Below the pieces are notes generated by a model. It saw only the letters and a list, made by a program, of their open reading frames with translations, did not search any database and was not told the origin of the DNA. Below are positions 1,858-19,296 of a DNA stretch of 64,000 nucleotides, one piece after another. The stretch lies in contig JAADDZ010000009.1 in the NCBI GenBank assembly GCA_013153635.1, forward strand, positions 29,967-93,966, written 5' to 3'. The stretch comes from Aquificota bacterium (GTDB taxonomy: Bacteria > Aquificota > Aquificia > Aquificales > Hydrogenothermaceae). The position numbers and the translations under genes were made by a program. Position 1 is the first letter of the stretch. The number at the start of each line of letters is the position of its first letter.

Positions 1858-1864
1858 GGTTAAG

Positions 1865-2626: not shown

Positions 2627-2637
2627 GGTAACAACTC

Positions 2638-4647
2638 TTGGAAAATAAAACAGTTAAAAAAAACAAAAAAAAGAGAAACATTCTAATAGCGATAGTAGTT
2701 CTCTTTGTGTTTATCATAGGAAATGTATACATATATGGGAAATTATCAAAAGTAGAAGAAGGTATATACAACCCATACGCTTTTTTAATAATTATCAATA
2801 TAAACGTTGTATTCTTTTTAACTATTCTTGCTCTTACACTTAGGTACTTTATAAAGCTCTTCTTTGAAGAAAGTAAATCAAGAGGGAAACTTAGAAAAAA
2901 ACTCACTGTAATATTACTATCCTTAGTGATTATTCCATCAATGATAATATCTATAGCCTCTATAAGCTTAATTTCAAATGCCACAAATATATGGTTCAGT
3001 GGGAAAGTAGAAGAAGCCCTAAAAACAATAGATGACATCTTAGAAAAAAACATAAAAGAATATGTCCATATGTGTGATGCAGTATCGAAATTAGTACTAT
3101 ATGAAAAAATCCACCCCCAAAAGATAATCAGATACTTTGAACTAAACTCAATAGTTATAATAAAAAACGGAAAAAAATCTACATATGGAAAACCTTTAAG
3201 CTCAATTTCCTACAAAGACCTCATAAACAAAAACTATATAATCTTCTACATACAAGACAAAGCATACCTTAGATACATAAAAAAAGATAACGGAACAATA
3301 GTAATCATAGATAAAAAACTCCCAGACTTCCTATCAAAAAAGAACAAAGAAGTAAAATCTATACTAAAACTATACTCCCAATTTAGATACTATAAAAACC
3401 CAATACGAATAGGTTATATACTCACCATGCTAATCATAACAATGTTCATAATTCTAGCCGCAATATGGTTTAGTCACTACATTGTAAAAAATCTAACCTA
3501 TCCATTAGAACAACTGGCAGAAGCCGCAAAAAGACTAGCAAAAGGTAATCTCAATGTAAGAGTCAACATAACCTCAAAAGACGAAATAGGAATACTCATA
3601 GAAGAATTCAATCACATGGTAGAACAACTTCAAAGCCTATACAAACAACTAGAAGTAAAAAATAAAGAACTCCAATATAGCAACCAGTATCTAGAAACCA
3701 TATTAGAGACAGCAAAAACAGGAGTTATCTTTTCTGACAAAGAAGGTAAAATCCAAAAAATAAACAGTGCCGCACTAAAAATATTAGGAACAGATAAAAA
3801 ACAAGTAGTAGGGAAAGACATTATAGAATTTCTCAAAGAACTAGGCTTAGACCCAAAAGACTTAGAAAAAGGTTCCCGAGTTCAATACAACGGAAAAATA
3901 CTCCTTATGAAACTGACAAAAATCCAAGGTACCAAAAAAGGATATGTACTAGTTATAGATGACATAACAAATGTAGTTCACGCCGAAAAAATATTAGCAT
4001 GGAAAGAGATAGCCCAAAGAATAGCTCATGAGATAAAAAATCCTCTAACACCCATACGCCTATCAGCAGAAAGGATAATCATACAGCACCAACGAAACAA
4101 CCCAAACTTCCCAAAAATACTTGAAAAAGCAACCAATATAATACTAAAAGAGGTAGACTATCTATCGAACCTAGTAAGAGAATTTAATCAATTTGCCTCG
4201 ATACAAGACAAATTAAAAAAAGAAAAATTCAGCCTAAATCAACTCCTACAAGAACTAAAAGATAGCTATGAAACCACAGACTTTAAAGTAGAAATAGAAG
4301 CAGAAAAAGAATTTACCATTTTTGGAGATAAAACCCTTATCAGACAAGCCCTAGCTAACCTTATTCAAAACAGTTACGAAGCAACAGAAGGTCAAAAAGA
4401 AAGGTGGGTAAAGATAAAAGTGTATCAAATTGATGATAAATTAGTAATAGAAGTAATAGATAATGGAGCAGGTATTTCCAAAGAAGATTTGGAAAAAATC
4501 TTCTCCCCTTATTTTTCAAAAAAAGTAAAAGGAAGTGGATTAGGTCTTTCTATAACCAAAGAAATAATAGAACTACACCAAGGAACAATAAAAGCTGTAA
4601 ATTCAGAAAAAGGAGCCCATTTTATAATAGAGCTTCCATTAAAATAA
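2638..4647 (+). CDS. Membrane sensor histidine kinase (NtrY-like: TM-HAMP-PAS-HisKA-HATPase)
   Basis: TTG start. N-terminal TM helices, HAMP-like segment (LAEAAKRLAKGNLNVRV), PAS segment, H-box HEIKNPLTPI, and N/G boxes (NLIQNSYEA, DNGAGI, GSGLGLS). No response regulator gene is adjacent. Confidence 0.85.
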   Translation: MENKTVKKNKKKRNILIAIVVLFVFIIGNVYIYGKLSKVEEGIYNPYAFLIIININVVFFLTILALTLRYFIKLFFEESKSRGKLRKKLTVILLSLVIIPSMIISIASISLISNATNIWFSGKVEEALKTIDDILEKNIKEYVHMCDAVSKLVLYEKIHPQKIIRYFELNSIVIIKNGKKSTYGKPLSSISYKDLINKNYIIFYIQDKAYLRYIKKDNGTIVIIDKKLPDFLSKKNKEVKSILKLYSQFRYYKNPIRIGYILTMLIITMFIILAAIWFSHYIVKNLTYPLEQLAEAAKRLAKGNLNVRVNITSKDEIGILIEEFNHMVEQLQSLYKQLEVKNKELQYSNQYLETILETAKTGVIFSDKEGKIQKINSAALKILGTDKKQVVGKDIIEFLKELGLDPKDLEKGSRVQYNGKILLMKLTKIQGTKKGYVLVIDDITNVVHAEKILAWKEIAQRIAHEIKNPLTPIRLSAERIIIQHQRNNPNFPKILEKATNIILKEVDYLSNLVREFNQFASIQDKLKKEKFSLNQLLQELKDSYETTDFKVEIEAEKEFTIFGDKTLIRQALANLIQNSYEATEGQKERWVKIKVYQIDDKLVIEVIDNGAGISKEDLEKIFSPYFSKKVKGSGLGLSITKEIIELHQGTIKAVNSEKGAHFIIELPLK

Positions 4648-4950: not shown

Positions 4951-5922
4951 ATGAGAAAAATACTATCAACCGCAGTTTTAGGTGTTGCCGCTCTATCATT
5001 AGCAATACCAATGACTGCTGAAGCTAAAAAAGAAAGAAAATCACCACCAGCTCCATTCCTTATCTGGGTAGATGATGCTAAACCTCTCGTAGGAAATGCA
5101 GATATAAGGTTTATATGTAGTGATGGTGAGAAAAAATGTGAAAAACATATCCCAGGTTCAGCTATAACTTCAGCTCACGACTTACATTACCTTAAAGACA
5201 TAAAAGAATGTAACGGACTACCTATGTGTAAAGAAAGAGCAGAAGAGTTCATAGGAAAAGAGTTAGGAGTAAGTAATGATATGACTGCTATAGCTTACGA
5301 TGACGGTAGAGGACCAAACGCATCAGGAGTATGGTACTTCCTATATCTATACGGGTTAGATGCAGACAAAGGGCAAACAAAAATGCTAGATGGTGGACTA
5401 GCAACTTGGGAAGCTAAAGGTTACCCCTTAGAAACTGGACACCCAAAAGTTGAGCCTAAAACATTCAAAGCGAATATAAGATGGGACATCTTAGCTACCA
5501 AAGAAGAAGTACTAAAGGCTATAAAAGACAAGAAAAACTACATAATACTCGACGCAAGAAGATTCCAAGAGTATGTAGGTAAAGCTCTACTAAAAGCTGA
5601 ATACGAGCCGGGAAAAGAGATACAAGTTAAAAGAGGTGGACATATACCCGGAGCTGTGTTCTTCGAATGGAAGAAAGTCGCAGGAAACCCTGCTGGAAAG
5701 CCCGGAAGACCTTTATTCAAACCACTGAAAAAACTCAAAAAATACTTTACAAAAATCGGTGTAACTCCAGAAAAAACTGTTATCACATATTGCCACGTAG
5801 GTACAGGTAGAGGTTCATTCGTATTCGCCGCATTAAAACTAATCGGACATGAAAAAGCTAAAGTGTATGTAGGTTCTTGGGACGAATGGGGTAACGACCC
5901 ATCACTTCCAATCGAAAAATAA
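4951..5922 (+). CDS. Secreted tandem-rhodanese sulfurtransferase (thiosulfate sulfurtransferase-like)
   Basis: ATG at 4951 is preceded by AGGAGG and starts a signal peptide (MRKILSTAVLGVAALSLAIPMTAEA). Two rhodanese domains; the C-terminal one carries the active loop CHVGTGRGS. The listed 4669 start only adds an unprotein-like extension. Confidence 0.8.
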   Translation: MRKILSTAVLGVAALSLAIPMTAEAKKERKSPPAPFLIWVDDAKPLVGNADIRFICSDGEKKCEKHIPGSAITSAHDLHYLKDIKECNGLPMCKERAEEFIGKELGVSNDMTAIAYDDGRGPNASGVWYFLYLYGLDADKGQTKMLDGGLATWEAKGYPLETGHPKVEPKTFKANIRWDILATKEEVLKAIKDKKNYIILDARRFQEYVGKALLKAEYEPGKEIQVKRGGHIPGAVFFEWKKVAGNPAGKPGRPLFKPLKKLKKYFTKIGVTPEKTVITYCHVGTGRGSFVFAALKLIGHEKAKVYVGSWDEWGNDPSLPIEK

Positions 5923-5969: not shown

Positions 5970-7097
5970 ATGGAACACACACATGCGTTAATAATGGGAA
6001 TAATCACAGGAGCTCTTTTTGGAATAGTCCTACATAAAGTAGGAGCTATAAGATACTCAAGAGTCGAAGGAATGCTCTTACTAAGAGACCTAAAAATCAT
6101 GAAATTCGCCTTTATGGGAATAGCTACCGCATCAATAATCTACGGTTTGACCCATATACTTGGTTTAGCAGAAGCCCTAAATATCCACCCAAGAGTACTT
6201 CCATACATGGGAATAGCCCACCTAATTGGAGGTTTCTTGTTTGGTATAGCAATGGCTTCAGCTGGTTTTTGTCCCGGTACATGTGTAGCAAGGGTAGGTG
6301 CAGGAAAATGGTTTGCGGCGGCTGGAGTGATAGGATTGGTACTAGGAATAATAATCTACAGTATGATACAGCCATCACTAGTAGAAGCTGGAATATTAGG
6401 GCAGAAAGAGAAAATAACCTTGTACGGTCTACTAGGGATACCTTATGGTGTTTTAGCAGTAGTATGGGGAATAGCATTTATAATATTCACCATAATCGCA
6501 GACTGGTTTGACCCAGCTAAAAAATATGAACAAAAAGAAAATAAAAGCTTATTTCAAGCTATAAGAGGAGAGTGGCACTGGTTACCATCAGGTATCTTTG
6601 CAGGATTAATAATTACATGGGCAACTATGCAAGGAGAGTACTTAGGATTTTCTGGAGCTACCTTAGCTTTAGTTGGTTGGATAGCTCACTCAATAGGTCA
6701 CCCTTTACAGATTGTTCCAAACATAAACGAAACTATTATGTGGCATACAGGTTTGATAATAGGAGTATTACCCGGAGCATTTTTAAGTGCAATTCTTTCA
6801 AAAACATTCAAATTTGACGCAGTTCCTCCTCCTTTTGCAGTAGCAGTTACTCCAATACCTTGGGTTAGATTAGTACTTGTATTCTTTGCAGGCATATTTT
6901 TAGCCCTTGGGGCAATGATTGGAGGTGGTTGTACAACAGGAGCATTCCTTTCAGCATATCCAACTCTATCAGTAGGACCAATGGCTATGTCTGCAACGTA
7001 TTTTGCCATTGGAGTACTAACTGCAAATCTCATATATTTCGGTAGATGGAGCAGATTTGTACAAGCCAAAAAAGCGGCAGACGAGGTTTATGATTAA
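5970..7097 (+). CDS. YeeE/YedE family sulfur-compound (thiosulfate) transport membrane protein
   Basis: 375 aa, polytopic. Two conserved Cys-containing loops typical of YeeE/YedE (SAGFCPGTC and GGGCTTGAF). GGAGGG RBS upstream. Confidence 0.8.
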   Translation: MEHTHALIMGIITGALFGIVLHKVGAIRYSRVEGMLLLRDLKIMKFAFMGIATASIIYGLTHILGLAEALNIHPRVLPYMGIAHLIGGFLFGIAMASAGFCPGTCVARVGAGKWFAAAGVIGLVLGIIIYSMIQPSLVEAGILGQKEKITLYGLLGIPYGVLAVVWGIAFIIFTIIADWFDPAKKYEQKENKSLFQAIRGEWHWLPSGIFAGLIITWATMQGEYLGFSGATLALVGWIAHSIGHPLQIVPNINETIMWHTGLIIGVLPGAFLSAILSKTFKFDAVPPPFAVAVTPIPWVRLVLVFFAGIFLALGAMIGGGCTTGAFLSAYPTLSVGPMAMSATYFAIGVLTANLIYFGRWSRFVQAKKAADEVYD

Positions 7098-7119: not shown

Positions 7120-7257
7120 ATGAGTATGATAGAGAGGGTTCTATATTGGTTAGCAATAGTTATACTTATTATTGGACTTATCGGACTAAAAACCCAAATC
7201 TCTGAATTAGAGAAAAAAACCAAGCAAGTTCAAACAGAACTCCAAGAAGGAGGTTGA
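7120..7257 (+). CDS. Unlisted 45-aa single-pass membrane mini-protein
   Basis: ATG 7120 follows AGAGGTGGAAAG. The product MSMIERVLYWLAIVILIIGLIGLKTQISELEKKTKQVQTELQEGG has one TM helix and a charged tail. Its last codons contain the GGAGG RBS of the next gene. It is below the length cut-off of the ORF track. Confidence 0.4.
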   Translation: MSMIERVLYWLAIVILIIGLIGLKTQISELEKKTKQVQTELQEGG

Positions 7258-7262
7258 TTATC

Positions 7263-7757
7263 ATGAATCCAAAAATAGAAAGAGCCATATACATAGGGCT
7301 TATTGTAGTTCTAGCTGGTTTACTTGTAAGTTTTGGGAAAAAAGAGATAGAACTCCAAAAACAGATACCAGTTACAGCAGAAGAGCTTTACAAAAAATTA
7401 GCCAATCCTAACATAAACATTCAGATAATAGATGTGAGACCCTATGAACCAGAAGACGAAGATTACGAAGATGAGTATCTCTACTATACAGATATTCACC
7501 TACCGGGAGCTATTCCTCTTCCAGACTGCGATGAATCTAAAGCTCCAGAAGAAGCTCTAGACCAGATAAACCCATACGCACCAACTATCATAGTATCAAA
7601 AGATGGGGACCCAGAAATATTCAAGAAATGTGCGAAAAAATTTAAAATAGCTCAAAACTTAGAAGGTGGAATAGAAGCATGGGACGATGCTGGTCTTCCT
7701 ACAGAAGACGGAGAGTATGAACCACCAAAAGCAGGTGGCGGAGGTGGTTGTTTATAA
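7263..7757 (+). CDS. Membrane-anchored rhodanese-like protein without catalytic-loop Cys, with a C-terminal GGGGGCL tail
   Basis: ATG 7263 lies 9 nt after GGAGG (the listed TTG 7254 is less likely). N-terminal TM anchor (AIYIGLIVVLAGLLVSF). Rhodanese blocks IIDVRP... and NLEGGIEAWDDAGLP. The loop position reads IIVSKDGDPE with no Cys. The protein ends ...PPKAGGGGGCL. Confidence 0.7.
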   Translation: MNPKIERAIYIGLIVVLAGLLVSFGKKEIELQKQIPVTAEELYKKLANPNINIQIIDVRPYEPEDEDYEDEYLYYTDIHLPGAIPLPDCDESKAPEEALDQINPYAPTIIVSKDGDPEIFKKCAKKFKIAQNLEGGIEAWDDAGLPTEDGEYEPPKAGGGGGCL

Positions 7758-7762
7758 CAAGT

Positions 7763-7792
7763 AGGGTGGTCAGCCACCCTATAATTTTCTTT
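7763..7792 (+). terminator. Hairpin, weak terminator or attenuator before the molybdoenzyme genes
   Basis: AGGGTGG-tcag-CCACCCT followed by ATAATTTTCTTT, an imperfect U-tract. Confidence 0.45.
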
Positions 7793-7825: not shown

Positions 7826-10753
7826 ATGGCTCTTTCAAGAAGGGACTTTTTGAAAGCCCTTAGCGCGGCGGGAGCAGGGATAACCTTAGGAGGAAATGCT
7901 TCATTTGCCAAAGAAGCAGTATGGGTAGAAGACCCAAGAAGCTCTTATCCTAACACTTCATATACAGAAAACTTATATAGAAAAGAGTTTGCCTACACTT
8001 ATGGAAAAAAAGAAGAACACGGAACAGCTTATCACTGTGTAAATTGTCAAGGGAACTGTGCTTGGGATGTATGGGTAGACAGTGGTATAGTAACAAGGGA
8101 GAATCAAGTAGCAAACTATACACCAATAAACCCAAAAATTCCAGATTTTAACCCTAGAGGGTGTAACAAAGGAGTACAGCACTCCCAAATTATGTATGAA
8201 AAAGATAGAGTTTTATACCCTTTAAAAAGAGTAGGAGAAAGAGGGTCTGGTCAATGGAAAAGAATAACATGGGACGAAGCAGTAACAGAAATAGCCCAAA
8301 ATATATATAAAACGATGTTAGAGAAGGGACCAGAAGGTTTATATATCCATGTAGGTTCAGGAATGCTTACTGAAGCAAGAGCCGCTTCAGGTAAAAGGTT
8401 AGGTACACTTCTTGGAGCGGTAAGACCTTACATAGCCTCATATGTAGGAGATATGTTCCAAGGAGTATCAGTAGTTTATGGAGAAGGAAATATAGGTTGT
8501 TCTTGGGACTTTCAGTATGTTACAGATGTTCAAGTGTACTGGGGAATGGACCCAAACAAAACAAGAATCCCAGATGCCCACTTTGTATGGGAAGGAAAAT
8601 ACAACGGTTCAAAAGTTATAGTTATAGCACCAGAATTCAATGCTACTGCTACTCATGCAGACCTGTGGATACCTGTAAAAGCAGGATACGATACATTTTT
8701 AGCAATGGCAGTTATAAACGAAATAATACAGAAAAAAATGTATAAAGAAGGATTTGTAAAGGTATTTACAGACCTTCCTTTCTTGGTAAGATTAGACGAT
8801 AAGAAACTCCTTAGAATGTCAGATATAGATATAGAAAATCCTTCAGCAGAGTTTGATGAAGAAATTTATAAAGTTTTTGAAGAAAAATCAGAAGGAAAAG
8901 AATTTGAACCAGAAGCATGTTTCTTCTGCTGGAATACAAAAACAAATAAACTAACATTGATGCCGGGTACAGAAGGTTGCCCGATACCAACTCTTAGATT
9001 AAAAGATGTAGGTTGGGATATAGACCCTGCATTAGAAGGGACTTGGGAAGTTACACTAAAAGATGGAACAAAAGTAAAAGTTACTACAGTGTTTGAACTT
9101 CTAAAAAAAGAAGCTGAAAAATTTTCAGCAGAAAAAACATGGAAACTCACAGGAGTCCACCCTACAGTAGTAGAACAGTTAGCAAAAGACATGGCATTAA
9201 ACAAAGTAGTTGAGTTAAATGTTGGATTTACCCTTGGTAAATACTTTAATGGACTTTTAGCACATAGAGCGGTTGCATCAATACCCGGTCTAATTGGGAA
9301 ATTAGGACCTTACGGTGGACTGAACACAGAAAACGAATGGGCAATATCAGGCATGGGCAAACTGTCTGGGTTTGCTGGAAAATACATGTTTAGATTTGCA
9401 TCAGGTTTTGTAAGTGAGTTTGTCTTAGGTAATGTATTCAAAGATGCAGAAAAACTATACGATGAAGAAGATGTTAAAAGAGCAACTGGATTATCAAAAG
9501 ACGAATATTTCAAAAGAGTAAAGGAAACCTTAGATAACTTTGGAACAGACGAAAAATGGAAAGAAAATCTGCACAAAAAAGATGGAAAACCTTACTGGAA
9601 TACAGTAGAAACATTTTTAATCTTTGCAGATTCTAGATTCAGAAGAAACAAAGGTACAACTTATAAAGAAGCTTTCCTAAAAAAAGCTAAATTCTTTGCC
9701 TATGTAGACTTTAGAATGAACTCCACCGCCCAATATGCTGACATCGTTCTACCAGCGAAATCTCACTATGAAGTTTGGGACTTGAGAACAAATCCCGGTT
9801 ATCATAGATATGCTAATCTAGCTCAACCACCGTCAAATCTAAAGCCTGTAGGAGAAGCAAAATCAGAATGGGAAATCTGTACACTTATAGTAGAAAAACT
9901 ACAGGAAATTGCACTAAAGAACTTTGAAGAAGCAAAGAAAAAAGGAGATAGCAATCCCGAAAGATTTATAAAAATACCAGACCCAACTCACAGTAAAACA
10001 GGATACAGAGAACTAGATAAATTAGTAGAAGAGTACACGTTAGGTGGAAAATTAAGAACCGATAAAGATGCAGTTGAGCTAGCACTTGAAAGTGTAGACC
10101 AGTTTAAACCAAACACCATAGAATCTATGAGAAAAAGAGGCGGATTCTTGATGTTAAATGATAAAGCTGGAAAAACCTCACCTCTTTATCCTGACAAACC
10201 TTACAGCTCCTTTGAAAATAACCTATTTTTATTTGAAAGATTTGAAACCCTATCTGGAAGGCTAACTTACTATGTAGACCACGAATTATGGATAGAATTT
10301 GGAGCGGCTCTCCCAACAGCAAAAGAGCCGATAAGACCTAAAAGGTATCCATTTATCCTAATGTCTCCTCACGCTAGATGGTCAATACACTCAACATACA
10401 AAACATCAAAAATACTCCTTAGACTACAAAGAGGAAAGCCATACATAATGATAAATCCAGAAATTGCTAAGAAAAAAGGAATAAAAGATGGAGATGAAGT
10501 AAAAATATTTAATGCCCTTGGTGAATTTTATGCCATGGCAAAACTCTATCCATCTGCTCCAAAAGATGCAATTATTATAGAGCATGGTTGGGAACCTTTC
10601 TTCTTCAAGAACAATAAGTGTCACAATGAAGTGGTAGGAGACATGCTAAATCTTCTAGAAATGTCAGACGGTTGGGGACACTTAAAATTTGGTGGAAATT
10701 GGGACGGAAACCAACATGCATTTGAAACATCAGTAGATATAGAAAAAGCATAA
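7826..10753 (+). CDS. Tat-exported type II DMSO-reductase-family molybdopterin oxidoreductase, alpha subunit (substrate unknown)
   Basis: Twin-arginine signal (MALSRRDFLKALSAAGAG). FS0 motif of the H-x3-C-x3-C type (YHCVNCQGNCAWDVW ... NPRGCNKG) as in the NarG/SerA/EbdA/DdhA group. 975 aa. Confidence 0.85.
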   Translation: MALSRRDFLKALSAAGAGITLGGNASFAKEAVWVEDPRSSYPNTSYTENLYRKEFAYTYGKKEEHGTAYHCVNCQGNCAWDVWVDSGIVTRENQVANYTPINPKIPDFNPRGCNKGVQHSQIMYEKDRVLYPLKRVGERGSGQWKRITWDEAVTEIAQNIYKTMLEKGPEGLYIHVGSGMLTEARAASGKRLGTLLGAVRPYIASYVGDMFQGVSVVYGEGNIGCSWDFQYVTDVQVYWGMDPNKTRIPDAHFVWEGKYNGSKVIVIAPEFNATATHADLWIPVKAGYDTFLAMAVINEIIQKKMYKEGFVKVFTDLPFLVRLDDKKLLRMSDIDIENPSAEFDEEIYKVFEEKSEGKEFEPEACFFCWNTKTNKLTLMPGTEGCPIPTLRLKDVGWDIDPALEGTWEVTLKDGTKVKVTTVFELLKKEAEKFSAEKTWKLTGVHPTVVEQLAKDMALNKVVELNVGFTLGKYFNGLLAHRAVASIPGLIGKLGPYGGLNTENEWAISGMGKLSGFAGKYMFRFASGFVSEFVLGNVFKDAEKLYDEEDVKRATGLSKDEYFKRVKETLDNFGTDEKWKENLHKKDGKPYWNTVETFLIFADSRFRRNKGTTYKEAFLKKAKFFAYVDFRMNSTAQYADIVLPAKSHYEVWDLRTNPGYHRYANLAQPPSNLKPVGEAKSEWEICTLIVEKLQEIALKNFEEAKKKGDSNPERFIKIPDPTHSKTGYRELDKLVEEYTLGGKLRTDKDAVELALESVDQFKPNTIESMRKRGGFLMLNDKAGKTSPLYPDKPYSSFENNLFLFERFETLSGRLTYYVDHELWIEFGAALPTAKEPIRPKRYPFILMSPHARWSIHSTYKTSKILLRLQRGKPYIMINPEIAKKKGIKDGDEVKIFNALGEFYAMAKLYPSAPKDAIIIEHGWEPFFFKNNKCHNEVVGDMLNLLEMSDGWGHLKFGGNWDGNQHAFETSVDIEKA

Positions 10754-10767
10754 AAAGGAGGTAAACA

Positions 10768-11880
10768 ATGTCAAAAAGACAATTAGCAATGGTAATGGAT
10801 TTAAATAAATGTATAGGTTGCCAGACCTGTACAGTTGCCTGCAAAACCCAATGGACTAACAGAAATGGTAGAGAATATATGTATTGGAACAATGTAGAAA
10901 CAATGCCCGGAGAAGGTTACCCTAGAGGTTGGATGGAAGCAGGTGGAGGATTCGATGAACAAGGAAATCTGCAAGATGGAGTGATTCCAGACTTAGTACA
11001 TGATTACGGAGTGCCATGGGATTACAACCATGATGAACTATTTGAAATGGACTATCTAAAACCAGATGGAGACCCAGTTTGGGGTCCTAACTGGGACGAA
11101 GATGTAGGAGCAGGAGATTGGCCTAATTCTTACTATTTCTATCTTCCAAGGATATGTAACCACTGTTCAAACCCCGGTTGTTTAGCCGCATGTCCAAGAG
11201 AAGCCATATTCAAAAGAGAACAAGATGGAATAGTTCTTGTAGACCTTGATAGATGTCAAGGGTATAGATACTGTATAGCAGGTTGTCCTTACAAAAAGAT
11301 TTACTTCAACCCAAAGCTTTCAAAGTCAGAAAAATGTATATTCTGTTTCCCAAGAATAGAAAGAGGTCTTCCTCCAGCTTGCGCACATCAATGTGTAGGA
11401 AGAATAAGATGGGTAGGCTTTTTAGATGATGAAGAAGGACAGATATACAAACTAGTTCACAAATATAAAGTAGCTCTACCATTAAGACCAGATTTTGGTA
11501 CTCAACCAAATGTATACTATGTTCCTCCAGTACTTAGCCCACCAAAATTTGATGATGAAGGAAAACTAATAGAAGGAGAAATTACAGGAAGAGTTCCAAT
11601 CGAATTTTTAGAAAAACTCTTTGGACCAGAAGTTCATAACGCTATAAAAACTCTAAAAGAAGAGATGGAAAAAAGAAAAAACGGAGAAGAATCAGAGCTA
11701 ATGGACATACTTATCGCATACAGTCATGCAGATATGTTTAGACTAGATGAAAAATACTATCAGGATTTAGCATCAGAAAAAGGATTAAAAGGTACAGAGT
11801 TCTTCAAAATCATTGACCACAGATACATTGCAGGAGCTAATACAAATAAGGAAGAAGTAAAGATATACTTCGAAAAATAA
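10768..11880 (+). CDS. Iron-sulfur beta subunit (NarH/SerB/EbdB-like, four clusters)
   Basis: Four Cys groups: CIGCQTCTVAC, CNHCSNPGCLAACP, CQGYRYCIAGCP, CIFCFPR...C..CVGR. 370 aa. Immediately follows alpha with its own RBS. Confidence 0.85.
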   Translation: MSKRQLAMVMDLNKCIGCQTCTVACKTQWTNRNGREYMYWNNVETMPGEGYPRGWMEAGGGFDEQGNLQDGVIPDLVHDYGVPWDYNHDELFEMDYLKPDGDPVWGPNWDEDVGAGDWPNSYYFYLPRICNHCSNPGCLAACPREAIFKREQDGIVLVDLDRCQGYRYCIAGCPYKKIYFNPKLSKSEKCIFCFPRIERGLPPACAHQCVGRIRWVGFLDDEEGQIYKLVHKYKVALPLRPDFGTQPNVYYVPPVLSPPKFDDEGKLIEGEITGRVPIEFLEKLFGPEVHNAIKTLKEEMEKRKNGEESELMDILIAYSHADMFRLDEKYYQDLASEKGLKGTEFFKIIDHRYIAGANTNKEEVKIYFEK

Positions 11881-11933: not shown

Positions 11934-13124
11934 ATGAAAAACTTGGTAAAAACAGCTCTTCTTGGAGTTGTTTCTACATCACTGATTATTAATGCATCAA
12001 AAGCAGATATTAAAACCTTTTTCAAATACGAAGTTCTACCCTCTAAACAGATAAGTCAATCTGTACCGTCAGACCCAAGAGATGAGTTATGGAGTATGGT
12101 TCCGGGGAAATACGTCTTCTTTTATCCTCAAATATCTGTAAGATTAAATGATGCTGATGCTAACAGAGTAATTCCTAAAAAGCGCCTTCAAAAAGCTCTA
12201 GTTAAAGTCGTTTATAACAGTGAAAACATAGCTGTTTATATAAGATGGAAAGATAGAACCCCTTCTATCCAACCAGTTTATACAACAAAAGCCTTTGGAG
12301 ATGGCATAAGTGTAGAATTTCCAAATGATTTTGGAGCAGGAAAAACACTTCCGTATGTAGGTATGGGAGACTTAAAACACCCAGTAACAGTTTATTTACA
12401 AAAAACGGTAGCTGGGAAAGATTATGAAAAAACATTTATATCAGAAGGATTTGGTACCTTAACAGAGATTACAGAAAACGGAGTATCCATGGAAATGGAT
12501 TACGATAAAGCTAAAAGAGAGTGGATAGCAGTTATAAAAAGACCTTTAAAAACCAAAAATAGTGACTTAAGAGCAGGATTAGTACCTATAGCGTTTGCTA
12601 TATGGAACGGCTCTCAACAGGAAAGAGATGGAAATAAATCTCTATCTAGATGGAAATTTATAAGATTAAAAAGCTACAAAATAGATAAAGAATATCTAGC
12701 CTATATCTCATGGGGAGATATGATTCATAAAGAAGCTGACCCAAACAGAGGGAAAAAACTAACAATCCAAAATGGGTGTAATGCATGTCATATATATGAC
12801 GACCAGAGAACAGCACCTTTAGATATGGCTCCAGACCTTTCTAACATTGGAGGTATCGCCCATGCTCCATATCTTAAAGAGTCATTAGTAGACCCAAACG
12901 ATGTGATAATAAGAAATCTTAATCCAAATAGACATTACAATAAATTTGCCCAACCAGACAAAAACGGTGCATATCCAAATAATGACATGTACACATGGTA
13001 TATAAAAACTCCTGATGGAAAAATACAGTCTAAGATGCCTTCTTTTAGTCATCTATCAGAACAAGATATAAAAGACATAATTGCATATTTAAAAACGTTA
13101 AGAAACTGGAGAAACTTTAAGTAA
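11934..13124 (+). CDS. Gamma subunit: EbdC/SerC/DdhC-like haem-b domain fused to a C-terminal mono-haem cytochrome c
   Basis: ATG 11934 follows GGAGGA and starts a signal peptide (MKNLVKTALLGVVSTSLIINASKA). Central region matches the pattern of type II enzyme gamma subunits (GDGISVEF, YVGMGD, AFAIWNGSQQERDGNKSLSRW). The C-terminal about 130 aa carries CNACH plus a distal Met region. Confidence 0.7.
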   Translation: MKNLVKTALLGVVSTSLIINASKADIKTFFKYEVLPSKQISQSVPSDPRDELWSMVPGKYVFFYPQISVRLNDADANRVIPKKRLQKALVKVVYNSENIAVYIRWKDRTPSIQPVYTTKAFGDGISVEFPNDFGAGKTLPYVGMGDLKHPVTVYLQKTVAGKDYEKTFISEGFGTLTEITENGVSMEMDYDKAKREWIAVIKRPLKTKNSDLRAGLVPIAFAIWNGSQQERDGNKSLSRWKFIRLKSYKIDKEYLAYISWGDMIHKEADPNRGKKLTIQNGCNACHIYDDQRTAPLDMAPDLSNIGGIAHAPYLKESLVDPNDVIIRNLNPNRHYNKFAQPDKNGAYPNNDMYTWYIKTPDGKIQSKMPSFSHLSEQDIKDIIAYLKTLRNWRNFK

Positions 13125-13138
13125 AAAGGAGGCAAAAG

Positions 13139-13588
13139 ATGAAAATAATGAAAAAACTTTTGATTTCACTATTATGGTTAGCTTTTTTAACTAATGTCCC
13201 TTTAAATCAAGCTATTGCCCAAGAAGAAACCCAAGAAGCAACTTCAGATGAAGAATTAGAAGAAGTAGAGATTTACAGCGGAGTGATTACTGCAAAATCC
13301 TGTGCAGAAAAAGCTCAAGAGACAGGAGAGTTTGAAATCCTAGCTAACTGCCCTCCTATAGAAGCGGCAAAATCTGGTTATGTTATATATGATGTTACCG
13401 AAAACAAATTTTATGTGCCAAAGCTAGGTAAAATATATCTCTTTGAACTAGATGAAGGGTTTGGCGGTAGTATAGATATTACCGGAGTTATTGTAGGAGA
13501 AACTGAAGACGGAATTCCTATAATAGACCCTGAAGAATATGAAATAACTCCAAAACCAAAACCGGGATTCTTCAAAGGTTGTTTATAA
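13139..13588 (+). CDS. Secreted acidic protein of unknown function ending in KGCL
   Basis: AGGAGG RBS. Sec signal peptide (LAFLTNVPLNQAIA|QEE). Acidic linker, internal Cys pair (SCAEKA, ANCPP). C-terminus PGFFKGCL. No family recognised. Confidence 0.6.
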   Translation: MKIMKKLLISLLWLAFLTNVPLNQAIAQEETQEATSDEELEEVEIYSGVITAKSCAEKAQETGEFEILANCPPIEAAKSGYVIYDVTENKFYVPKLGKIYLFELDEGFGGSIDITGVIVGETEDGIPIIDPEEYEITPKPKPGFFKGCL

Positions 13589-13592
13589 CATA

Positions 13593-13616
13593 TGGGGCGC
13601 TAATGCCCCATTTTTA
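13593..13616 (+). terminator. Rho-independent terminator
   Basis: TGGGGC-gctaat-GCCCCA followed by TTTTTAT. Confidence 0.7.
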
Positions 13617-13781: not shown

Positions 13782-14417
13782 ATGAGATTAGGTTTTTTGG
13801 TAGATTTGAGTAGGTGTATGGGGTGCATGGCTTGTGCAGTGTCTTGTAAAGCAGAGAATAATGTTCCTCTAGAGAGCTGGAGACTAAGAGTTAAATATAT
13901 AGACCAAGGAGAGTTTCCAGAAACAAAAAGACATTATGTTCCCCTTAGATGTAACCATTGTGAAAATGCACCTTGCGAAAGGATATGTCCTGTATCAGCA
14001 CTTCACTATCTCCCAAATGGAATTGTAAATGTAGACCATACAAGATGTATAGGCTGTGCATCGTGTATGATGGCTTGTCCATACAATGCCATATATATAG
14101 ACCCTCTTACAAATTCAGCTGATAAATGTACCTACTGCGCTCATAGGATAGAAGTTGGGTTAATGCCTGCATGTGTTGTAGCATGCCCTACACATGCCAA
14201 TATTTTTGGAGACCTTGATGACCCAGAGAGCGAAATATCCAAATATCTTCAAGAACATAGAGATGTGATGGTTAGGAAACCAGAATTAAATACAAAACCG
14301 AAACATTTTTATGTGAGAGGTTCTACTGTTGCACTTGACCCTCTTGCTTCAGAAAGACCAGAAGGGTTTACCCTGTTTACAGAAGTAAAATTCTTAGAAC
14401 ATATAGGAGGGCATTAA
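13782..14417 (+). CDS. 4Fe-4S ferredoxin-type subunit (TtrB/PsrB/NrfC-like)
   Basis: 211 aa with four CxxCxxC(xxxC)P-type groups: CMGCMACAVSC, CNHCENAPCERICP, CIGCASCMMACP, CTYCAHR...C..CP. Confidence 0.85.
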   Translation: MRLGFLVDLSRCMGCMACAVSCKAENNVPLESWRLRVKYIDQGEFPETKRHYVPLRCNHCENAPCERICPVSALHYLPNGIVNVDHTRCIGCASCMMACPYNAIYIDPLTNSADKCTYCAHRIEVGLMPACVVACPTHANIFGDLDDPESEISKYLQEHRDVMVRKPELNTKPKHFYVRGSTVALDPLASERPEGFTLFTEVKFLEHIGGH

Positions 14418-14418
14418 A

Positions 14419-15300
14419 ATGTTGGGAGCAGAAGTAACCTTTGATGTGGCACTGCCAAAAGTAGTGTGGGGGTGGCTCGTTTCTACTAATATGTGGGCAA
14501 AGAGTATATCTACAGGAGCGTTCTTTGTTGGACTTTATTTTATAAAAAAATATCCAGACCAAGATGCATTTTTTAGAAAGTGGTTGCCAATATTAGGACT
14601 TATTTTTATTGGAATTACATTACTAGTTACTATATTAGACCTTCACCATATGTTTAGATTTTGGAAAATATTTTTATTTGCTCATTTTACTTCAGCAGTT
14701 ACATTAGGAGCTTGGGTAGTATCTGCTTATGTATTGATACTTCTCATAGCTTTTTGGTCTTGGGTCACAGGTAACAGAAAACTCTTTGATAGAGTAGTTA
14801 TTCCCGGATTTATATTCGCATTTTTCTCTACTATTTATACAGCTGGAATATTAGGTCAATCTACAGGAAGAGAAGTATGGATATTTTCAGCAGAGATGAT
14901 TTCTATGCTCCTTAGTGCTACTTTAGCAGGTTCAGCGGCTTATCTATTAATAGGTTCTATCTATGGAAGTTTAAATGAAAAGATGAAAAAAGAGCTTGGA
15001 TATATACTTTTTGGAAGTGCAGGTTTACTTGCGGCGATGTTTATCGGAGAACTTGTATTTGCAAAAATGCACAGTGAATATGCAGAAAAAGTTGTAGAAA
15101 TATTGGCATTTGGCGAAGTAGCCCCTTGGTTCTGGGGAGGAATGTTCTTAGCATTTATCGTACCTATGGTTTTAGTTGGAATAGCTACAGAAAAGAGAAA
15201 ATATGAGTATGCACTATTAGGCTCTATTAGTGCGCTTGTCGGACTTTGGCTTATAAAACATGCATGGCTAATAGCTCCTCAATCATTACCATTAAGTTAA
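14419..15300 (+). CDS. NrfD/PsrC/TtrC-type integral membrane quinol-interacting subunit
   Basis: 293 aa with about 8 predicted TM helices. Starts 1 nt after the stop of the FeS subunit and lies between the B and A subunits. Confidence 0.75.
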   Translation: MLGAEVTFDVALPKVVWGWLVSTNMWAKSISTGAFFVGLYFIKKYPDQDAFFRKWLPILGLIFIGITLLVTILDLHHMFRFWKIFLFAHFTSAVTLGAWVVSAYVLILLIAFWSWVTGNRKLFDRVVIPGFIFAFFSTIYTAGILGQSTGREVWIFSAEMISMLLSATLAGSAAYLLIGSIYGSLNEKMKKELGYILFGSAGLLAAMFIGELVFAKMHSEYAEKVVEILAFGEVAPWFWGGMFLAFIVPMVLVGIATEKRKYEYALLGSISALVGLWLIKHAWLIAPQSLPLS

Positions 15301-15319
15301 TCAAGGAGGGAGATAAAAT

Positions 15320-18300
15320 ATGAGATTATCAAGAAGAACTTTTTTAAAAGGTAGTGCGGCTACGATAGGAGGAATAGCTTTAGCTAAAGGGGTTTTCTCA
15401 AAAACTCAACCTTCTGCTGTAGCACAAACTAATGAAGAAATAACATTTACTCCAGAAAGGCTTGACTATTATCCACCATTTGATAAATGGAACAACTGGA
15501 GAGAACCTGATGGAGACTATTGGAAGCTCAAAGGTGGTGCCTTAAGAGATGGGGTAAAAATGATAAATTACATGCTGGTTCCAACGGTATGTAACAACTG
15601 TGAGGCGGCTTGTGGTCTTACAGCATGGGTAGACAAGGATAACCTTGTAGTAAAAAAATATATGGGAAATCCTTTCCATTCTGGTTCTAGAGGAAGAAAC
15701 TGTGCAAAAGGCTATGCTACTCAATCCCAGATGTACGACCCAGATAGAATTCCTTTCCCTTTAAAAAGAGCGCCTGGTTCAAAAAGAGGAGAAGGAAAAT
15801 GGGTTAGAACTACTTGGGACGAAGCCTTAAAAGATATAGCAAAAAAACTAAGAGAAGCTATTTCTAGTGGAAGTGAGCTAGAGAGAAAGATGATAATGTA
15901 CCACGTAGGTAGACCTAACGAATCTGGAGGATTTACTGCTAGAGTTGTTTGGACTTGGGGTGGAGACCATCACAACTCTCATACAAATATATGTTCTTCT
16001 GGAGGTAGATTAGGAGGAATAGCTTGGTCTGGAGACGATAGACCTTCTCCGGATTTTGCAAGCTCAAGATTGATATTTTTGTCAGCCTCTCATGCGGCAG
16101 ATGCAGGTCACTATTACCAACAGCACGCAGGATATATAGCTGATGCGAGAGCCAAGGGTGCAAAACTTGTAATAATGGACCCAAGACTTTCAAACTCTGC
16201 TGGATTAGCAGACTTATGGATACCTGTATGGCCCGGTACAGAAGCCGCAGTATATCTATCAATGATAAGTAGACTTCTACAGGAAGACAAATACAACAGA
16301 AAATTTATGGAAAGATGGGTAAACTGGAAAACATTCCTTAGAGATAAGGACTATCTCAACTATCTAAAAGATAACGGTTTTATATCAAAATTTCCTGAAG
16401 GAGAGACTTTTGATGATTTTATCGCTGTTTTAAAAGAAATCTACGCTCCATATACTTTTGAATGGGCTTCTAAAGAAACAAAAGTACCTATATACAAGCT
16501 TGAAAGACTATATGAAATGATTTTATGGGCTGAAGATAGGATTACATCTTATTTTTGGAGAGCTCAAGCCGCAGGGAATAGAGGTGGTTGGCTAAACGCT
16601 GGAAGAACAGGATACTTTTTATTAATCGTAACAGGAGCTATTGGAGGAATAGGTGGAAATGGTTGGCACAAATGGCATGTATTAGGAGTAGGAGCAAAAG
16701 GTGGAAAAGCTACTTTAAAAGAAAAACCGGGTCCTGTAGATGATTGGAACGAACTCTTGTGGCCACCAGAATGGCCGTTATCTACTTACGAACTGTCCTT
16801 CCTTTTACCTCATCTATTGTCTGACGATGAATGGAGACAAAAATGGGAAAAAAGAGGTCTTAAAATTCCCGGAAAATTAAAATTATGGATTTCTAAGATA
16901 TACAATCCAGTATGGATTAATCCAGATGGCTTTAGATGGATAGAGGTTTTGAGAAACGAAAATAAGATGGAGTTAACAGTAAATCTATCTCCTACTTGGT
17001 CAGAGACCAACTGGTTCTGTGATTATATACTCCCTGTAGGATTAGCTGGAGAAAGACATGACAACCAATCAGCAGAAACAAAACCAGAGAGATGGACTGC
17101 TTTTAGACAGCCAGTACTAAGAGTGGCTCTTCAAAAGATGGGGTGGAAGCCAAAAGTCCCTTGGAGAGCAACATTGGAAGCACACAAAAAAGCTGGTCTT
17201 GGAGAAGTATGGGAAGAAAACGAGTTTTGGATTAATCTTATGTGGGAAGTAGACCCAGATGGTTCTCTAGGAGTGAGACAGTACTACGAATCAAAGAAAA
17301 ATCCGGGTAAACCTGTAACTATAGAAGAGTGGTATGATGCGGCGTTTGGTACTCTACCAAACTTGAGCAAGGTATGTCAAAAATTAGGAGTAACTCCTTA
17401 TGAGTACATGAGAGATAGAGGTGCATGGACAGAAGAAACAGATGTGTACAACGTTCATGAAAGAGAACTCCCTTATGACCCTACAAAGAATGCAATAAAG
17501 TACAAAGGAAAATGGATACCTCTATCTGAATGTGAAATAGATGAAGATACAGGCGCAGTTTACCTAAAACATCACGGTGCAAGAGAATGGCATAGTGAAA
17601 GACATACTATAGCTGTTAAGAAAGATGGCAGATACCTTCAAGGTTTCCACACACCTACAGGGGTGCTTGAGTTTTATTCAAAGACCTTTGTTGAGTGGAA
17701 ATGGCCTGAATATGCGATACCTGTCTATCCTAGAGATAAAGAAGAGAGAAAGAAAATGGTTCATATAGTAACTCATGTACATCACGACTACATGACAGAA
17801 GAGAACGCTTTTGCTTTGAATCCAATATTCAGGCTTCCTTACAATATTCACACAAGGTCTGTAAATGCTAAATGGCTGATGGAAATCTCTCAAAACCATA
17901 ACCCTATATGGATATATGAAGGTGATGCTAAAAGATTGGGTATAAAAAGAGGAGATGCTATCAAACTTAGAGTAGTAGATACTGTTTCTGGTATAGAGGT
18001 TGGATACTTTGTGGGAATGGCTATTCCAACTCAAGCTACAAGACCGGGAGTTGTTGCGTGTTCACATCATTCTGGAAGATGGAGATTAAAAACTACCGTA
18101 AAAGTAGATAAATATGAGCTAGGAATATTAAGGTATGGTTCAGCTCTTGCAGATATGAAAGAAGAAGGGTCTGTTAAAAAGATAAGATGGATAAAAGGTG
18201 TAGAAAGATTTAAGGTGGAAAAACAAGGTGATGAATTTAAATGGCCTTATCCAGAATTTAATAAAGATATGGAGTTTGTTTGGTGGAGAGGAGATACAGG

Positions 18301-18586
18301 AGTATGGCAGAATTCTGTATTCCCTGCTAACCCAGACCCGTTATCTGGAATGCACTGCTGGCATAAAAAAGTTCTTATAGAAAAGGCTGGTCCAGAAGAT
18401 AAGATAGGTGACGTAGTAGTAGATATAGAAAAGACATTCAAAGTATATCAAGCTTGGAGAGATGTATTAACTAGACCAGCACCTGGTCCTAACTACCTAA
18501 GAAGACCAAAATGGTTCAAGAGACCTTGGTATCCACACACAGATAAGTCTTATAGAATGCCAACTGGTGAATCTCACGGAGAGTAA
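15320..18586 (+). CDS. Tat-exported molybdopterin oxidoreductase catalytic subunit, Ttr/Sre/Psr-like (large, 1088 aa)
   Basis: Twin-arginine signal (MRLSRRTFLKGSAATIGG). FS0 motif C-x2-C-x3-C (CNNCEAACGL ... GRNCAKG). The B-C-A gene order and about 1000+ aa size resemble tetrathionate reductase TtrBCA. Confidence 0.8.
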   Translation: MRLSRRTFLKGSAATIGGIALAKGVFSKTQPSAVAQTNEEITFTPERLDYYPPFDKWNNWREPDGDYWKLKGGALRDGVKMINYMLVPTVCNNCEAACGLTAWVDKDNLVVKKYMGNPFHSGSRGRNCAKGYATQSQMYDPDRIPFPLKRAPGSKRGEGKWVRTTWDEALKDIAKKLREAISSGSELERKMIMYHVGRPNESGGFTARVVWTWGGDHHNSHTNICSSGGRLGGIAWSGDDRPSPDFASSRLIFLSASHAADAGHYYQQHAGYIADARAKGAKLVIMDPRLSNSAGLADLWIPVWPGTEAAVYLSMISRLLQEDKYNRKFMERWVNWKTFLRDKDYLNYLKDNGFISKFPEGETFDDFIAVLKEIYAPYTFEWASKETKVPIYKLERLYEMILWAEDRITSYFWRAQAAGNRGGWLNAGRTGYFLLIVTGAIGGIGGNGWHKWHVLGVGAKGGKATLKEKPGPVDDWNELLWPPEWPLSTYELSFLLPHLLSDDEWRQKWEKRGLKIPGKLKLWISKIYNPVWINPDGFRWIEVLRNENKMELTVNLSPTWSETNWFCDYILPVGLAGERHDNQSAETKPERWTAFRQPVLRVALQKMGWKPKVPWRATLEAHKKAGLGEVWEENEFWINLMWEVDPDGSLGVRQYYESKKNPGKPVTIEEWYDAAFGTLPNLSKVCQKLGVTPYEYMRDRGAWTEETDVYNVHERELPYDPTKNAIKYKGKWIPLSECEIDEDTGAVYLKHHGAREWHSERHTIAVKKDGRYLQGFHTPTGVLEFYSKTFVEWKWPEYAIPVYPRDKEERKKMVHIVTHVHHDYMTEENAFALNPIFRLPYNIHTRSVNAKWLMEISQNHNPIWIYEGDAKRLGIKRGDAIKLRVVDTVSGIEVGYFVGMAIPTQATRPGVVACSHHSGRWRLKTTVKVDKYELGILRYGSALADMKEEGSVKKIRWIKGVERFKVEKQGDEFKWPYPEFNKDMEFVWWRGDTGVWQNSVFPANPDPLSGMHCWHKKVLIEKAGPEDKIGDVVVDIEKTFKVYQAWRDVLTRPAPGPNYLRRPKWFKRPWYPHTDKSYRMPTGESHGE

Positions 18587-18598
18587 TATAATTCTTGA

Positions 18599-18623
18599 GG
18601 GGGCTAAAAGCCCCTTTTTATTT
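18599..18623 (+). terminator. Terminator-like hairpin
   Basis: GGGGC-taaaa-GCCCC followed by TTTTTATTT. A chaperone gene still follows 37 nt later. Confidence 0.6.
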
Positions 18624-18660: not shown

Positions 18661-19296
18661 ATGGGAACAGTAGAGGAAACACAAGCACGGGTTAATATGT
18701 ATGGACTTTTGTCAAGACTTTTGATAGAAGAAGTTGATTTTTATACGCTAGAAAAAATCAAAGAAAATAAAGATTTACTTGATTTATTCCCTAAGACAAA
18801 AGAATGGGATTTATTTTGGGAAAAGGATACTCAAAAGCTTATAGAAGAAGACCTAAATGTAGATTTTACAACTATTTTTATTTTAAATGCTTACCCTTAT
18901 GAATCAGTATTTGTTAATGATGAAGGTTACATAAACCCAACGATAACAAACCCTACCCTTATGTTCTATAAAGACCATGGATACTCTATAGACCTTAATG
19001 AAACAAGAGCTTTATCTCCTGACCATATTGCAGTAGAACTTGAATTTATGATGAATCTTATACAAGAGGAACTAAACGCAATAGCGAAAGAAGATGAGGA
19101 AGAATTAAAAAGGATAAGAAATATACAAAAAGATTTTCTTAAAGAACATCTTGCTAACTGGGGAACTATTTATCTACTATCAGCTAGGGAACTAGCTCAA
19201 ACACCTTTTTACCAAGATGTTAGCACTCTTGCTATGGAATTTTTATTAAACGATTACGAATATATAAATGAGCTTTTAGGTACTCAAAAAAATTAA
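18661..19296 (+). CDS. TorD/DmsD/NarJ-superfamily redox enzyme maturation chaperone
   Basis: 211 aa. N-terminal pattern RVNMYGLLSRLLIEE..., later PYESVF and DHIAVELEFM blocks typical of the family. Confidence 0.7.
   Translation: MGTVEETQARVNMYGLLSRLLIEEVDFYTLEKIKENKDLLDLFPKTKEWDLFWEKDTQKLIEEDLNVDFTTIFILNAYPYESVFVNDEGYINPTITNPTLMFYKDHGYSIDLNETRALSPDHIAVELEFMMNLIQEELNAIAKEDEEELKRIRNIQKDFLKEHLANWGTIYLLSARELAQTPFYQDVSTLAMEFLLNDYEYINELLGTQKN

Follow-up and report, generated by a model that had tools for sequence, protein, structure and literature searches.

Why would two unrelated proteins of one gene cluster end in the same three residues, Gly-Cys-Leu? The question is raised by a 64,000-nucleotide stretch of a Hydrogenothermaceae genome (Aquificota; contig JAADDZ010000009.1), hereafter the window, in which the open reading frame (ORF) at 13139..13588 on the forward strand encodes a 149-residue protein, here called the GCL protein. 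Its last residues recur in a membrane-anchored rhodanese-like protein, rhdGCL, encoded further upstream, and its gene directly follows those for the three subunits of a type II molybdoenzyme of the dimethyl sulfoxide (DMSO) reductase family. The answer that we favour, with a confidence about evenly balanced, is that the GCL protein is the fourth, exported component of an undescribed periplasmic type II molybdoenzyme oxidising reduced sulfur, in which Cys148 would act as a sulfur-carrying swinging arm.

The GCL gene has a strong ribosome-binding site, AAGGAGG, 7 nt 5' of its ATG, and is also called, without a Pfam assignment, in the Joint Genome Institute (JGI) annotation of metagenome 3300005095, whose 123-kb contig Ga0072504_100011 contains the window. 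The N-terminus of the protein, MKIMKKLLISLLWLAFLTNVPLNQAIA, reads as a Sec-type signal peptide of residues 1-27 (13139..13219), with a putative cleavage site, NQAIA/QEE, ahead of a mature sequence that would begin QEETQEATSDEELEE. Homologues begin with Sec-type signal peptides or lipoboxes, as seen in an alignment of 35 family sequences (A1) and in the homologue listings. An AlphaFold2 (AF2) model of the protein has a mean predicted local distance difference test score (pLDDT) of 86.5. The signal region is modelled as a low-confidence helix (residues 3-18), followed by an acidic linker of residues 28-40 (13220..13258; pLDDT 53-63), which varies in length and sequence across A1. The conserved core, residues 41-137 (13259..13549), is a compact barrel built mainly of β-strands with inserted helices, and pLDDT values of 94-98 extend across residues 41-140. 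Last comes the C-terminal arm TPKPKPGFFKGCL with the stop codon (13550..13588), which is coil by DSSP, with a mean pLDDT of 79 in the last block. Residues A56, D85, G110, D113, G143, K146, C148 and L149 are invariant in A1. The two internal cysteines of the core, C55 and C71, are near-invariant and, given the periplasmic location, probably form a disulfide.

The original prediction had described a secreted, acidic protein of no recognised family ending in KGCL, a description confirmed by the ORF, the export signal and the family libraries, in which the protein has no Pfam or NCBIfam match at E ≤ 0.01. A Foldseek search of the PDB with the model gave nothing significant; the top matches were OB-fold domains (aminoacyl-tRNA synthetase N-domains, RPA and YobA) with E = 0.055-1 and TM-scores of at most 0.39. 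Databases name the family members 'hypothetical protein' or 'lipoprotein'. Very large proteins (P0104, P0107, P0111 and others) that surfaced in a search with single-sequence representatives are not taken as evidence of homology: their match is confined to residues 68-115, often in repeats, and we treat it as a shared β-hairpin-like motif. Judged from these sequence comparisons, the GCL protein is an exported member of a family without prior description.

The C-terminus of the protein reads ...PKPKPGFFKGCL (in longer form ...EEYEITPKPKPGFFKGCL), that is, GFFKGCL, with Cys148 penultimate and Leu149 terminal, bearing the free carboxylate. The tail is conserved throughout the family. Among its homologues, 77 of 85 end in GCL, in the form ...PKP[KA]PGFFKGCL, and of the 99 loci that carry a copy, 98 have the GCL end; the exceptions are all tail-less paralogues or truncated entries, so that every tailed member ends in GCL. 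Distant representatives, with 36-50% core identity, all end in [PA]G[FAS]FKGCL. Across 154 distinct tails, conservation by position is P 96%, K 98%, P 68% or A 31%, G 100%, a variable residue, F 99%, K 100%, G 99%, C 100% and L 100%, the glycine at -6 and the lysine at -3 (counting Leu as 0) thus being without exception. The rhdGCL homologues behave likewise: 49 of 53 end in GCL, in the form ...PP[KAS]AGGGGGCL. When their 66 distinct tails are set beside the 154, Cys(-1) and Leu(0) stand at 100% in both families and Gly(-2) at 99-100%, and the two tails are in register as P(-9) K(-8) [P/A](-7) G(-6), three residues and G-C-L, or P-K-[PA]-G-x3-G-C-L. Wherever a locus has both genes, both end in GCL, a metagenome-assembled genome (MAG) labelled Myxococcales included. 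Scanned with K[PA]G[FAS]FKGCL, metagenomes gave 130 matches, 115 of them in the GCL family; across the window and about 100 loci, no further real ORF has such an ending. By these counts, the identity of the two tails at the peptide level is far beyond chance. The penultimate-Cys C-terminus common to the two proteins, which the original prediction had noticed in this one genome, is therefore deeply conserved, and since the sharing holds across phyla, we argue that the two tails have a common function. Loss of the tail in orthologues, the observation by which the original prediction would have been refuted, is clearly not what the family shows. For genome annotation, [PA]G[FAS]FKGCL-COOH offers a diagnostic C-terminal motif that defines an unannotated family.

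The tails had come to attention through their DNA. The window contains two copies of the 14-mer GGTTGTTTATAACA, at 7746 and 13577, and no more; they form the 3' ends of the rhodanese-like ORF (...PPKAGGGGGCL and stop) and of the GCL ORF. Among the ORFs of the window with 60 codons or more, these two alone end in GCL. Given two ends that code for Gly-Cys-Leu-stop, the codon usage of the window predicts identity over 12 nt with P ~0.027 and over 14 nt with P ~0.002. In the closest locus (L001, 93% identical in the α subunit), the tails are coded by other synonymous codons, GGATGTCTGTAATG versus GGTTGCCTATAATA, and high-GC loci code the tail as GGCTGCCTG. Since relatives keep the peptide but vary the synonymous codons, there is no constraint at the DNA level, and the nucleotide identity is incidental. 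The 14-nt match is thus real but carries no meaning of its own, and the codon bias offered as its possible explanation holds for the DNA, not for the peptide tails. A shared RNA element or gene conversion was rejected on the same grounds: the nucleotides are not kept in relatives, and codon bias is a plausible source of the match. The last four codons are identical between the two tails in three AT-rich loci (the window, L020 and L031), over 12-13 nt, which is somewhat commoner than the ~2.7% per locus predicts; a strong codon preference shared among related genomes is the likely cause.

The second arm protein, rhdGCL (7264..7757, + strand), matches the rhodanese domain PF00581 (5.7e-09) and has the tail ...EYEPPKAGGGGGCL, its extreme end being ...GEYEPPKAGGGGGCL (GGGGGCL). 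Its start had been placed at TTG 7254; ATG 7264 is likelier and gives a product of 164 residues, identical to database protein P0118. In the AF2 model, a helix of residues 3-34, the transmembrane (TM) anchor, precedes a rhodanese fold at 36-145, and the tail, residues 157-164, has a pLDDT below 50; with the coil of the GCL protein, both arms are thus predicted to be non-globular. The PF00581 domain is present, but the catalytic cysteine is not: in a very weak alignment (E = 0.16), Ser112 falls opposite the active-site cysteine of Wolinella Sud. Residues C89, C123, the tail cysteine C163 and Ser112 are invariant, the last across 31 sequences. The side of the membrane on which the domain lies is ambiguous by the positive-inside rule, with 1.8 Lys/Arg before the anchor versus 3.4 after it and an equal net charge; in two loci (L014 and L029), the flanks favour a periplasmic domain.

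Both arm genes belong to a conserved cassette with the order tandem rhodanese, YeeE, small TM peptide, rhdGCL, α, β, γ and GCL protein, an arrangement that the window shares with about 30 long loci. Counted over GCL-tailed loci with enough upstream sequence, the γ gene lies directly 5' of the GCL gene in 53 of 53, α is present in 27 of 27 and rhdGCL in 25 of 25. The γ stop is separated from the GCL start by 14 nt in the window, and the two genes overlap by 4 nt in three high-GC loci (L010, L011 and L014), a spacing that suggests translational coupling of a subunit-like partner. Hosts within the Hydrogenothermaceae are Sulfurihydrogenibium, Persephonella, Hydrogenivirga and Hydrogenothermus; beyond them, the cassette occurs in MAGs labelled Myxococcales and Pseudomonadota and in soil, wetland and sediment metagenomes.

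The partner enzyme has the hallmarks of the type II family. The molybdopterin subunit α (7826..10753, + strand; PF00384, PF01568) carries a twin-arginine translocation (Tat) signal and an FS0 motif, HCVNCQGNC, and scores 802 bits with TIGR03479 (cut-off 985). Its D209, invariant in 18 orthologues, aligns with the Mo-ligating aspartate of PcrA (D170), EbdA (D223) and NarG (D222), and the nearest solved structures are those of perchlorate reductase PcrA (4ydd) and ethylbenzene dehydrogenase EbdA (2ivf). The iron-sulfur subunit β (10768..11880, + strand) scores 529.8 bits with TIGR03478, above the cut-off of 480.7. The γ subunit (11934..13124, + strand; PF09459, PF00034), for which we follow the JGI start giving 396 residues, scores 110 bits with TIGR03477, below the cut-off of 170. 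It has a Sec signal and a fusion of an EbdC-like haem-b domain with a monohaem cytochrome c domain (CNACH) at the C-terminus, and a methionine and a lysine align with the EbdC haem-b ligands M108 and K201 (2ivf_C). Because α and γ fall below their subfamily cut-offs, we regard the enzyme as a divergent, unassigned clade of the family. Haem b and molybdenum retain their usual ligands, which leaves Cys148 free for a cargo; the haem or metal ligand that the original prediction had considered for the tail cysteine is not needed.

The upstream half of the cassette supplies its sulfur genes by Pfam and NCBIfam assignment, two rhodaneses and YeeE. Its first gene, at the head of the cassette in 21 long loci, encodes a periplasmic tandem rhodanese, rhd2x (4954..5922, + strand; Pfam Rhodanese 2.5e-20), with the signal peptide MRKILSTAVLGVAALSLAIPMTAEA and a C-terminal-domain active-site loop CHVGTGR; its NCBIfam SseA-like and ExtH-like matches are both below cut-off. 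The start at 4954 is our choice in a frame open from 4669, and the JGI call gives a 403-residue product. Next, in a position constant across loci, is a YeeE/TsuA-like sulfur transport membrane protein (5970..7097, + strand; PF04143 Sulf_transp 1.3e-29; TsuA 2.2e-17, below cut-off). In L001, three tandem yeeE copies (538..3971; 76-88% identical to YeeE of the window) stand in place of one. Between yeeE and the rhdGCL gene lies an ORF called by JGI and seen in translation, encoding a single-pass membrane peptide of 45 residues, MSMIERVLYWLAIVILIIGLIGLK... (7120..7257, + strand), which resembles the N-terminal anchor of rhdGCL; an equivalent small ORF occurs here in 17 of 25 loci, the Myxococcales MAG included. 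No TusA-like gene was found among the Pfam and NCBIfam matches of the cassette. As originally noted, a terminator-like hairpin follows each GCL-ending gene: a GC-rich one with a T-run after rhdGCL (7761..7782, + strand) and another after the GCL gene (13592..13611, + strand).

Outside Aquificota, the cassette often continues downstream. In L009-L011, L045, L047, L054, L056 and others, it is followed by a SorT-SorU sulfite dehydrogenase fusion (508 bits versus NF052247), a Mrp/NUBPL-type P-loop ATPase, a monohaem cytochrome c and the COX2(+cyt c), COX1 and COX3 genes of a caa3-type oxidase; in L045, L047, L054, L056 and others, the SorT-SorU and oxidase genes lie ~300-6500 nt 3' of the GCL gene. 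In these genomes, cassette, SorT-SorU, cytochrome c and oxidase form a self-contained module running from donor to oxygen. Such neighbours indicate an oxidative sulfur pathway, and the neighbourhood as a whole points to a periplasmic dehydrogenase that would oxidise a reduced sulfur compound and pass the electrons to cytochrome c and oxidase. An unannotated ORF of 398 residues follows SorT-SorU in L009 and L011.

An invariant thiol beside a free C-terminus, on a non-globular, Pro/Lys- or Gly-rich arm shared by two unrelated proteins of the cassette, one of them tightly linked to a redox enzyme, leads us to propose a carrier of the DsrC or SoxY kind; of the functions that the original prediction had offered for the tail, a substrate carrier arm fits best. 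The GCL protein would consist of a β-barrel body and a Pro/Lys-rich arm of 11-12 residues ending in Gly-Cys-Leu-COOH. Cys148 would bind sulfur in covalent form (persulfide, polysulfide or thiosulfonate) and swing between partners. The periplasmic tandem rhodanese would load it, and the loaded arm would then, most probably, enter the substrate funnel of α, where O-atom transfer would oxidise the bound sulfur, much as SoxCD acts on SoxY-persulfide. The electrons would leave through the iron-sulfur clusters of β, haem b of γ, the cytochrome c domain of γ and a soluble cytochrome c to an oxidase. The twin arm on rhdGCL, encoded beside YeeE, could reflect one shared docking site or a hand-over of cargo between the arms and YeeE. 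In this scheme, what the arm carries, which way the reaction runs and where the arm docks are all inferred.

Several points weigh against the scheme. The substrates of known type II enzymes are small molecules, and none of these enzymes is known to accept a protein-tethered one. The arm of the GCL protein has a moderate pLDDT (~79) and could lie against the body when idle. The assignment to sulfur comes entirely from the gene neighbourhood, and the tail, being invariant, offers no covariation from which a partner could be deduced. If the domain of rhdGCL is cytoplasmic, the two arms could not both reach α, and YeeE is then the likelier common partner.

Swinging C-terminal arms that bear a cysteine are known in principle, and the closest precedent is DsrC/TusE (PF04358, TIGR03342), a sulfur carrier that presents substrate to DsrAB, with a strictly conserved penultimate cysteine on a flexible, Pro/Lys-containing arm. 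DsrC of 2v4j (chain C) ends in ...GLPKPTGCV, and its gene, like that of the GCL protein, is tied to that of its redox enzyme. PMC3397948 describes the penultimate cysteine as carrying a persulfide or sulfonate, with the arm reaching into the catalytic cleft of DsrAB. DsrC is however cytoplasmic and serves a sirohaem sulfite reductase, whereas the GCL protein would be a periplasmic partner of a type II enzyme with molybdenum bis(pyranopterin guanine dinucleotide); its arm is 3-4 residues longer and lacks the second arm cysteine (CysB). No relation to DsrC appeared as a Pfam match or among the Foldseek PDB matches of the GCL protein, the PDB containing DsrC structures.

SoxY is the periplasmic counterpart. 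It has an Ig-like sandwich fold, and its bound sulfane sulfur is oxidised by SoxCD, a molybdenum enzyme. The Gly-rich arm of rhdGCL, GGGGGCL, recalls the GGCGG of SoxY, and according to PMC5336275, SoxYZ carries all the intermediates of the Sox pathway on the cysteine of its C-terminal arm. The GCL protein differs in its barrel with weak OB-fold-like matches, in ending Cys-Leu rather than Cys-Gly-Gly, and in its partner, which belongs to the DMSO reductase family rather than, like SoxCD, to the sulfite oxidase family. The GCL protein and its neighbours have no Pfam match to SoxY or SoxZ, nor does the cassette contain a conserved soxZ-like gene.

Two further systems resemble the cassette in part. 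Sud of Wolinella succinogenes is a periplasmic protein of rhodanese fold that passes Cys-bound sulfur to the molybdoenzyme Psr. It (1qxn) is among the few PDB sequences that align, very weakly (E = 0.16), with the active-site region of rhdGCL, but it uses a canonical active-site cysteine where rhdGCL has a serine and keeps its conserved thiol on the C-terminal arm; the GCL protein itself is not a rhodanese. YeeD/TsuB and the SoxT1A-Rhd442 pair share with the cassette a Cys-bearing sulfur-transfer protein encoded beside a YeeE-type transporter; unlike YeeD/TsuB, the arm proteins lack a TusA fold or motif and carry the thiol on a C-terminal arm, and one of them is clearly periplasmic. In the Hyphomicrobium model of PMC11582611, sulfur passes from SoxYZ to the YeeE-like SoxT1A and on to the cytoplasmic rhodanese Rhd442, and a small single-TM protein is encoded with the SoxT1A module. 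The 45-residue peptide at 7120..7257 parallels this protein, the 56-residue Hden_0678 beside SoxT1A. In the full text searched, a collection with few subscription journals that includes PMC11582611, PMC2907700, PMC10045233 and PMC3397948, neither the cassette nor the GCL protein is described. New here are the fold and family of the protein, its motif and the kind of enzyme that it partners.

The main alternative places the docking site on YeeE: the arm, instead of entering the molybdoenzyme, would dock in the periplasmic vestibule of YeeE to deliver or collect sulfane sulfur or thiosulfate, and the arm of rhdGCL would do likewise on the other face, in the role that YeeD/TsuB or Rhd442 has elsewhere. 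A channel reachable from both sides of the membrane would explain two identical arms. The gene for rhdGCL always follows yeeE, as yeeD does in E. coli-type operons, the cassette has no TusA-like gene among its library matches, and many rhdGCL members are richer in Lys/Arg on the C-terminal side of the anchor, which is compatible with a cytoplasmic domain. The route from SoxYZ through SoxT1A to a rhodanese, with its small single-TM protein (PMC11582611), offers a published model, in which that protein has its parallel in the cassette ORF at 7120..7257. We nevertheless think this reading somewhat unlikely: in every one of the 53 loci, the GCL gene is coupled to γ and not to yeeE, the hairpins in the window divide the yeeE unit from the α-β-γ-GCL unit, and the anchor flanks of L014 and L029 favour a periplasmic rhodanese domain. 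It is compatible with the molybdoenzyme reading, as the arm could visit both partners. The subunit-like coupling to γ would equally suit a structural or regulatory δ subunit whose cysteine, rather than carrying cargo, would form a redox switch, plug the active site or bind a cofactor; the tail is invariant, and a carboxylate beside a thiol might mimic an oxyanion in the active site. We consider this unlikely, as γ keeps its haem-b ligands and CxxCH, α keeps its Mo-ligating aspartate, and the same arm on a membrane-anchored rhodanese-like protein from a separate transcription unit is left unexplained.

The same carrier logic might instead serve selenium, another chalcogen or a metalloid, for example in a selenate- or selenite-handling enzyme with thiol arms that bind Se. 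Selenate reductase is among the type II enzymes, respiration of selenate and selenite is reported for some species of Sulfurihydrogenibium, and there are weak matches, far below cut-off, to ExtH (a rhodanese of selenite/tellurite operons) and YedE/FdhT. With SorT-SorU and a cytochrome c oxidase, linked to the cassette in many lineages, pointing to oxidation of a sulfur donor rather than reduction of an oxyanion, and with the family present throughout the sulfur-oxidising Hydrogenothermaceae, we find it very unlikely. Less likely still is a C-terminal sorting, processing or attachment signal, as in lipidation, envelope cross-linking or recognition by a protease or maturase, which the original prediction had also entertained. 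In its favour, the tail is C-terminal and invariant, and it recurs in a second, unrelated protein, both being exported or membrane-bound. In the established sorting signals of C-termini (LPXTG, PEP-CTERM and GlyGly-CTERM), a hydrophobic segment and a basic stop-transfer come after the motif; here neither follows it, the neighbourhood shows no conserved candidate for a processing enzyme, and the tail is restricted to the two cassette proteins in the window and ~100 loci.

Extending the sulfur-carrier reading beyond this locus, we tentatively suggest, as a possibility that we rate below an even chance, that the cassette represents a widespread, unrecognised periplasmic pathway in which a type II molybdoenzyme acts on carrier-tethered sulfur. 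It would be an independent counterpart, on a new fold, of SoxCD/SoxYZ and DsrAB/DsrC, with the twin arm of rhdGCL linking it to transmembrane sulfur traffic. If true, this would be the first protein-bound substrate for the DMSO reductase family, extending its known chemistry, and the third independent origin of a cysteine on a swinging C-terminal arm. Sox, Dsr and sHdr account for only part of the sulfur oxidation of Aquificota and of many uncultured bacteria from soil, wetland and vents. A strictly conserved cassette of seven to eight genes, centred on an uncharacterised clade of type II molybdoenzymes, with its own cytochrome c outlet and in many lineages its own sulfite dehydrogenase and terminal oxidase, is a strong candidate for a missing energy-conserving step. 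The GCL arms give a precise and testable handle, one cysteine on one peptide, and cultured hosts are at hand in Persephonella marina, Sulfurihydrogenibium azorense, S. subterraneum, S. yellowstonense, Hydrogenothermus marinus and Hydrogenivirga.

As the last gene of an α-β-γ operon, the GCL gene occupies the place of ebdD and pcrD, which encode maturation chaperones of the NarJ/EbdD/TorD kind. The original prediction had held that the protein sits in the slot of such a chaperone and is not itself one. The latter stands, given the export signal here and the signal peptides or lipoboxes across the family; yet the GCL gene does not replace the chaperone gene, as a NarJ/TorD/EbdD-like chaperone gene was found at 18661..19296 (+ strand; PF02613 2.5e-17; TIGR03482 1.1e-13 and TorD 1.4e-13, both below cut-off), 5 kb 3' of the GCL gene and in an equal relative place in Sulfurihydrogenibium loci. 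The idea that the GCL protein is a NarJ-like chaperone was accordingly rejected: it is exported, acidic and modelled mainly as a β-barrel rather than with the all-helical fold of these chaperones, it matches neither PF02613 nor TIGR03482, and a separate chaperone-like gene exists.

Between the two genes lies a second molybdoenzyme operon (13782..18586, + strand) with the order B-C-A and a Psr/Phs/Ttr-like character, encoding a TtrB/ArrB-like iron-sulfur subunit, an NrfD-type membrane subunit and a Tat-exported, PhsA/PsrA-like catalytic subunit of 1088 residues. Its substrate would be of the thiosulfate, polysulfide or tetrathionate type, it is tied to the cassette in the Hydrogenothermaceae only, and a terminator-like hairpin at 18597-18617 is associated with it. 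Directly 5' of the cassette, a HAMP-PAS histidine kinase (2638..4647, + strand) is a possible sensor for it.

Paralogues and natural variants of the tail accompany the family. The tail-less paralogues of the GCL protein sit outside the cassette, adjoining the ATP synthase operon. In one lineage (L099, 5984..7565 and 10001..10357), three tandem paralogues follow γ, two with FFKGCL and one ending ...PRPKEIIQYTIF, and a fourth, tail-less copy adjoins the ATP synthase operon (with which L098 748..1221 is listed). A related copy from the same lineage, P0035, has a Cys-rich C-terminal extension (...CNYCSF...CEEFCCSKKRYYINMWKQ). The rhodanese-like protein of L099 (103..624; P0166, and likewise P0155 and P0167) carries residues beyond the motif (...SSRGCLGGGNSIKVVYSW), so that its cysteine is not penultimate, and a variant of this type could reveal whether the free C-terminus matters.

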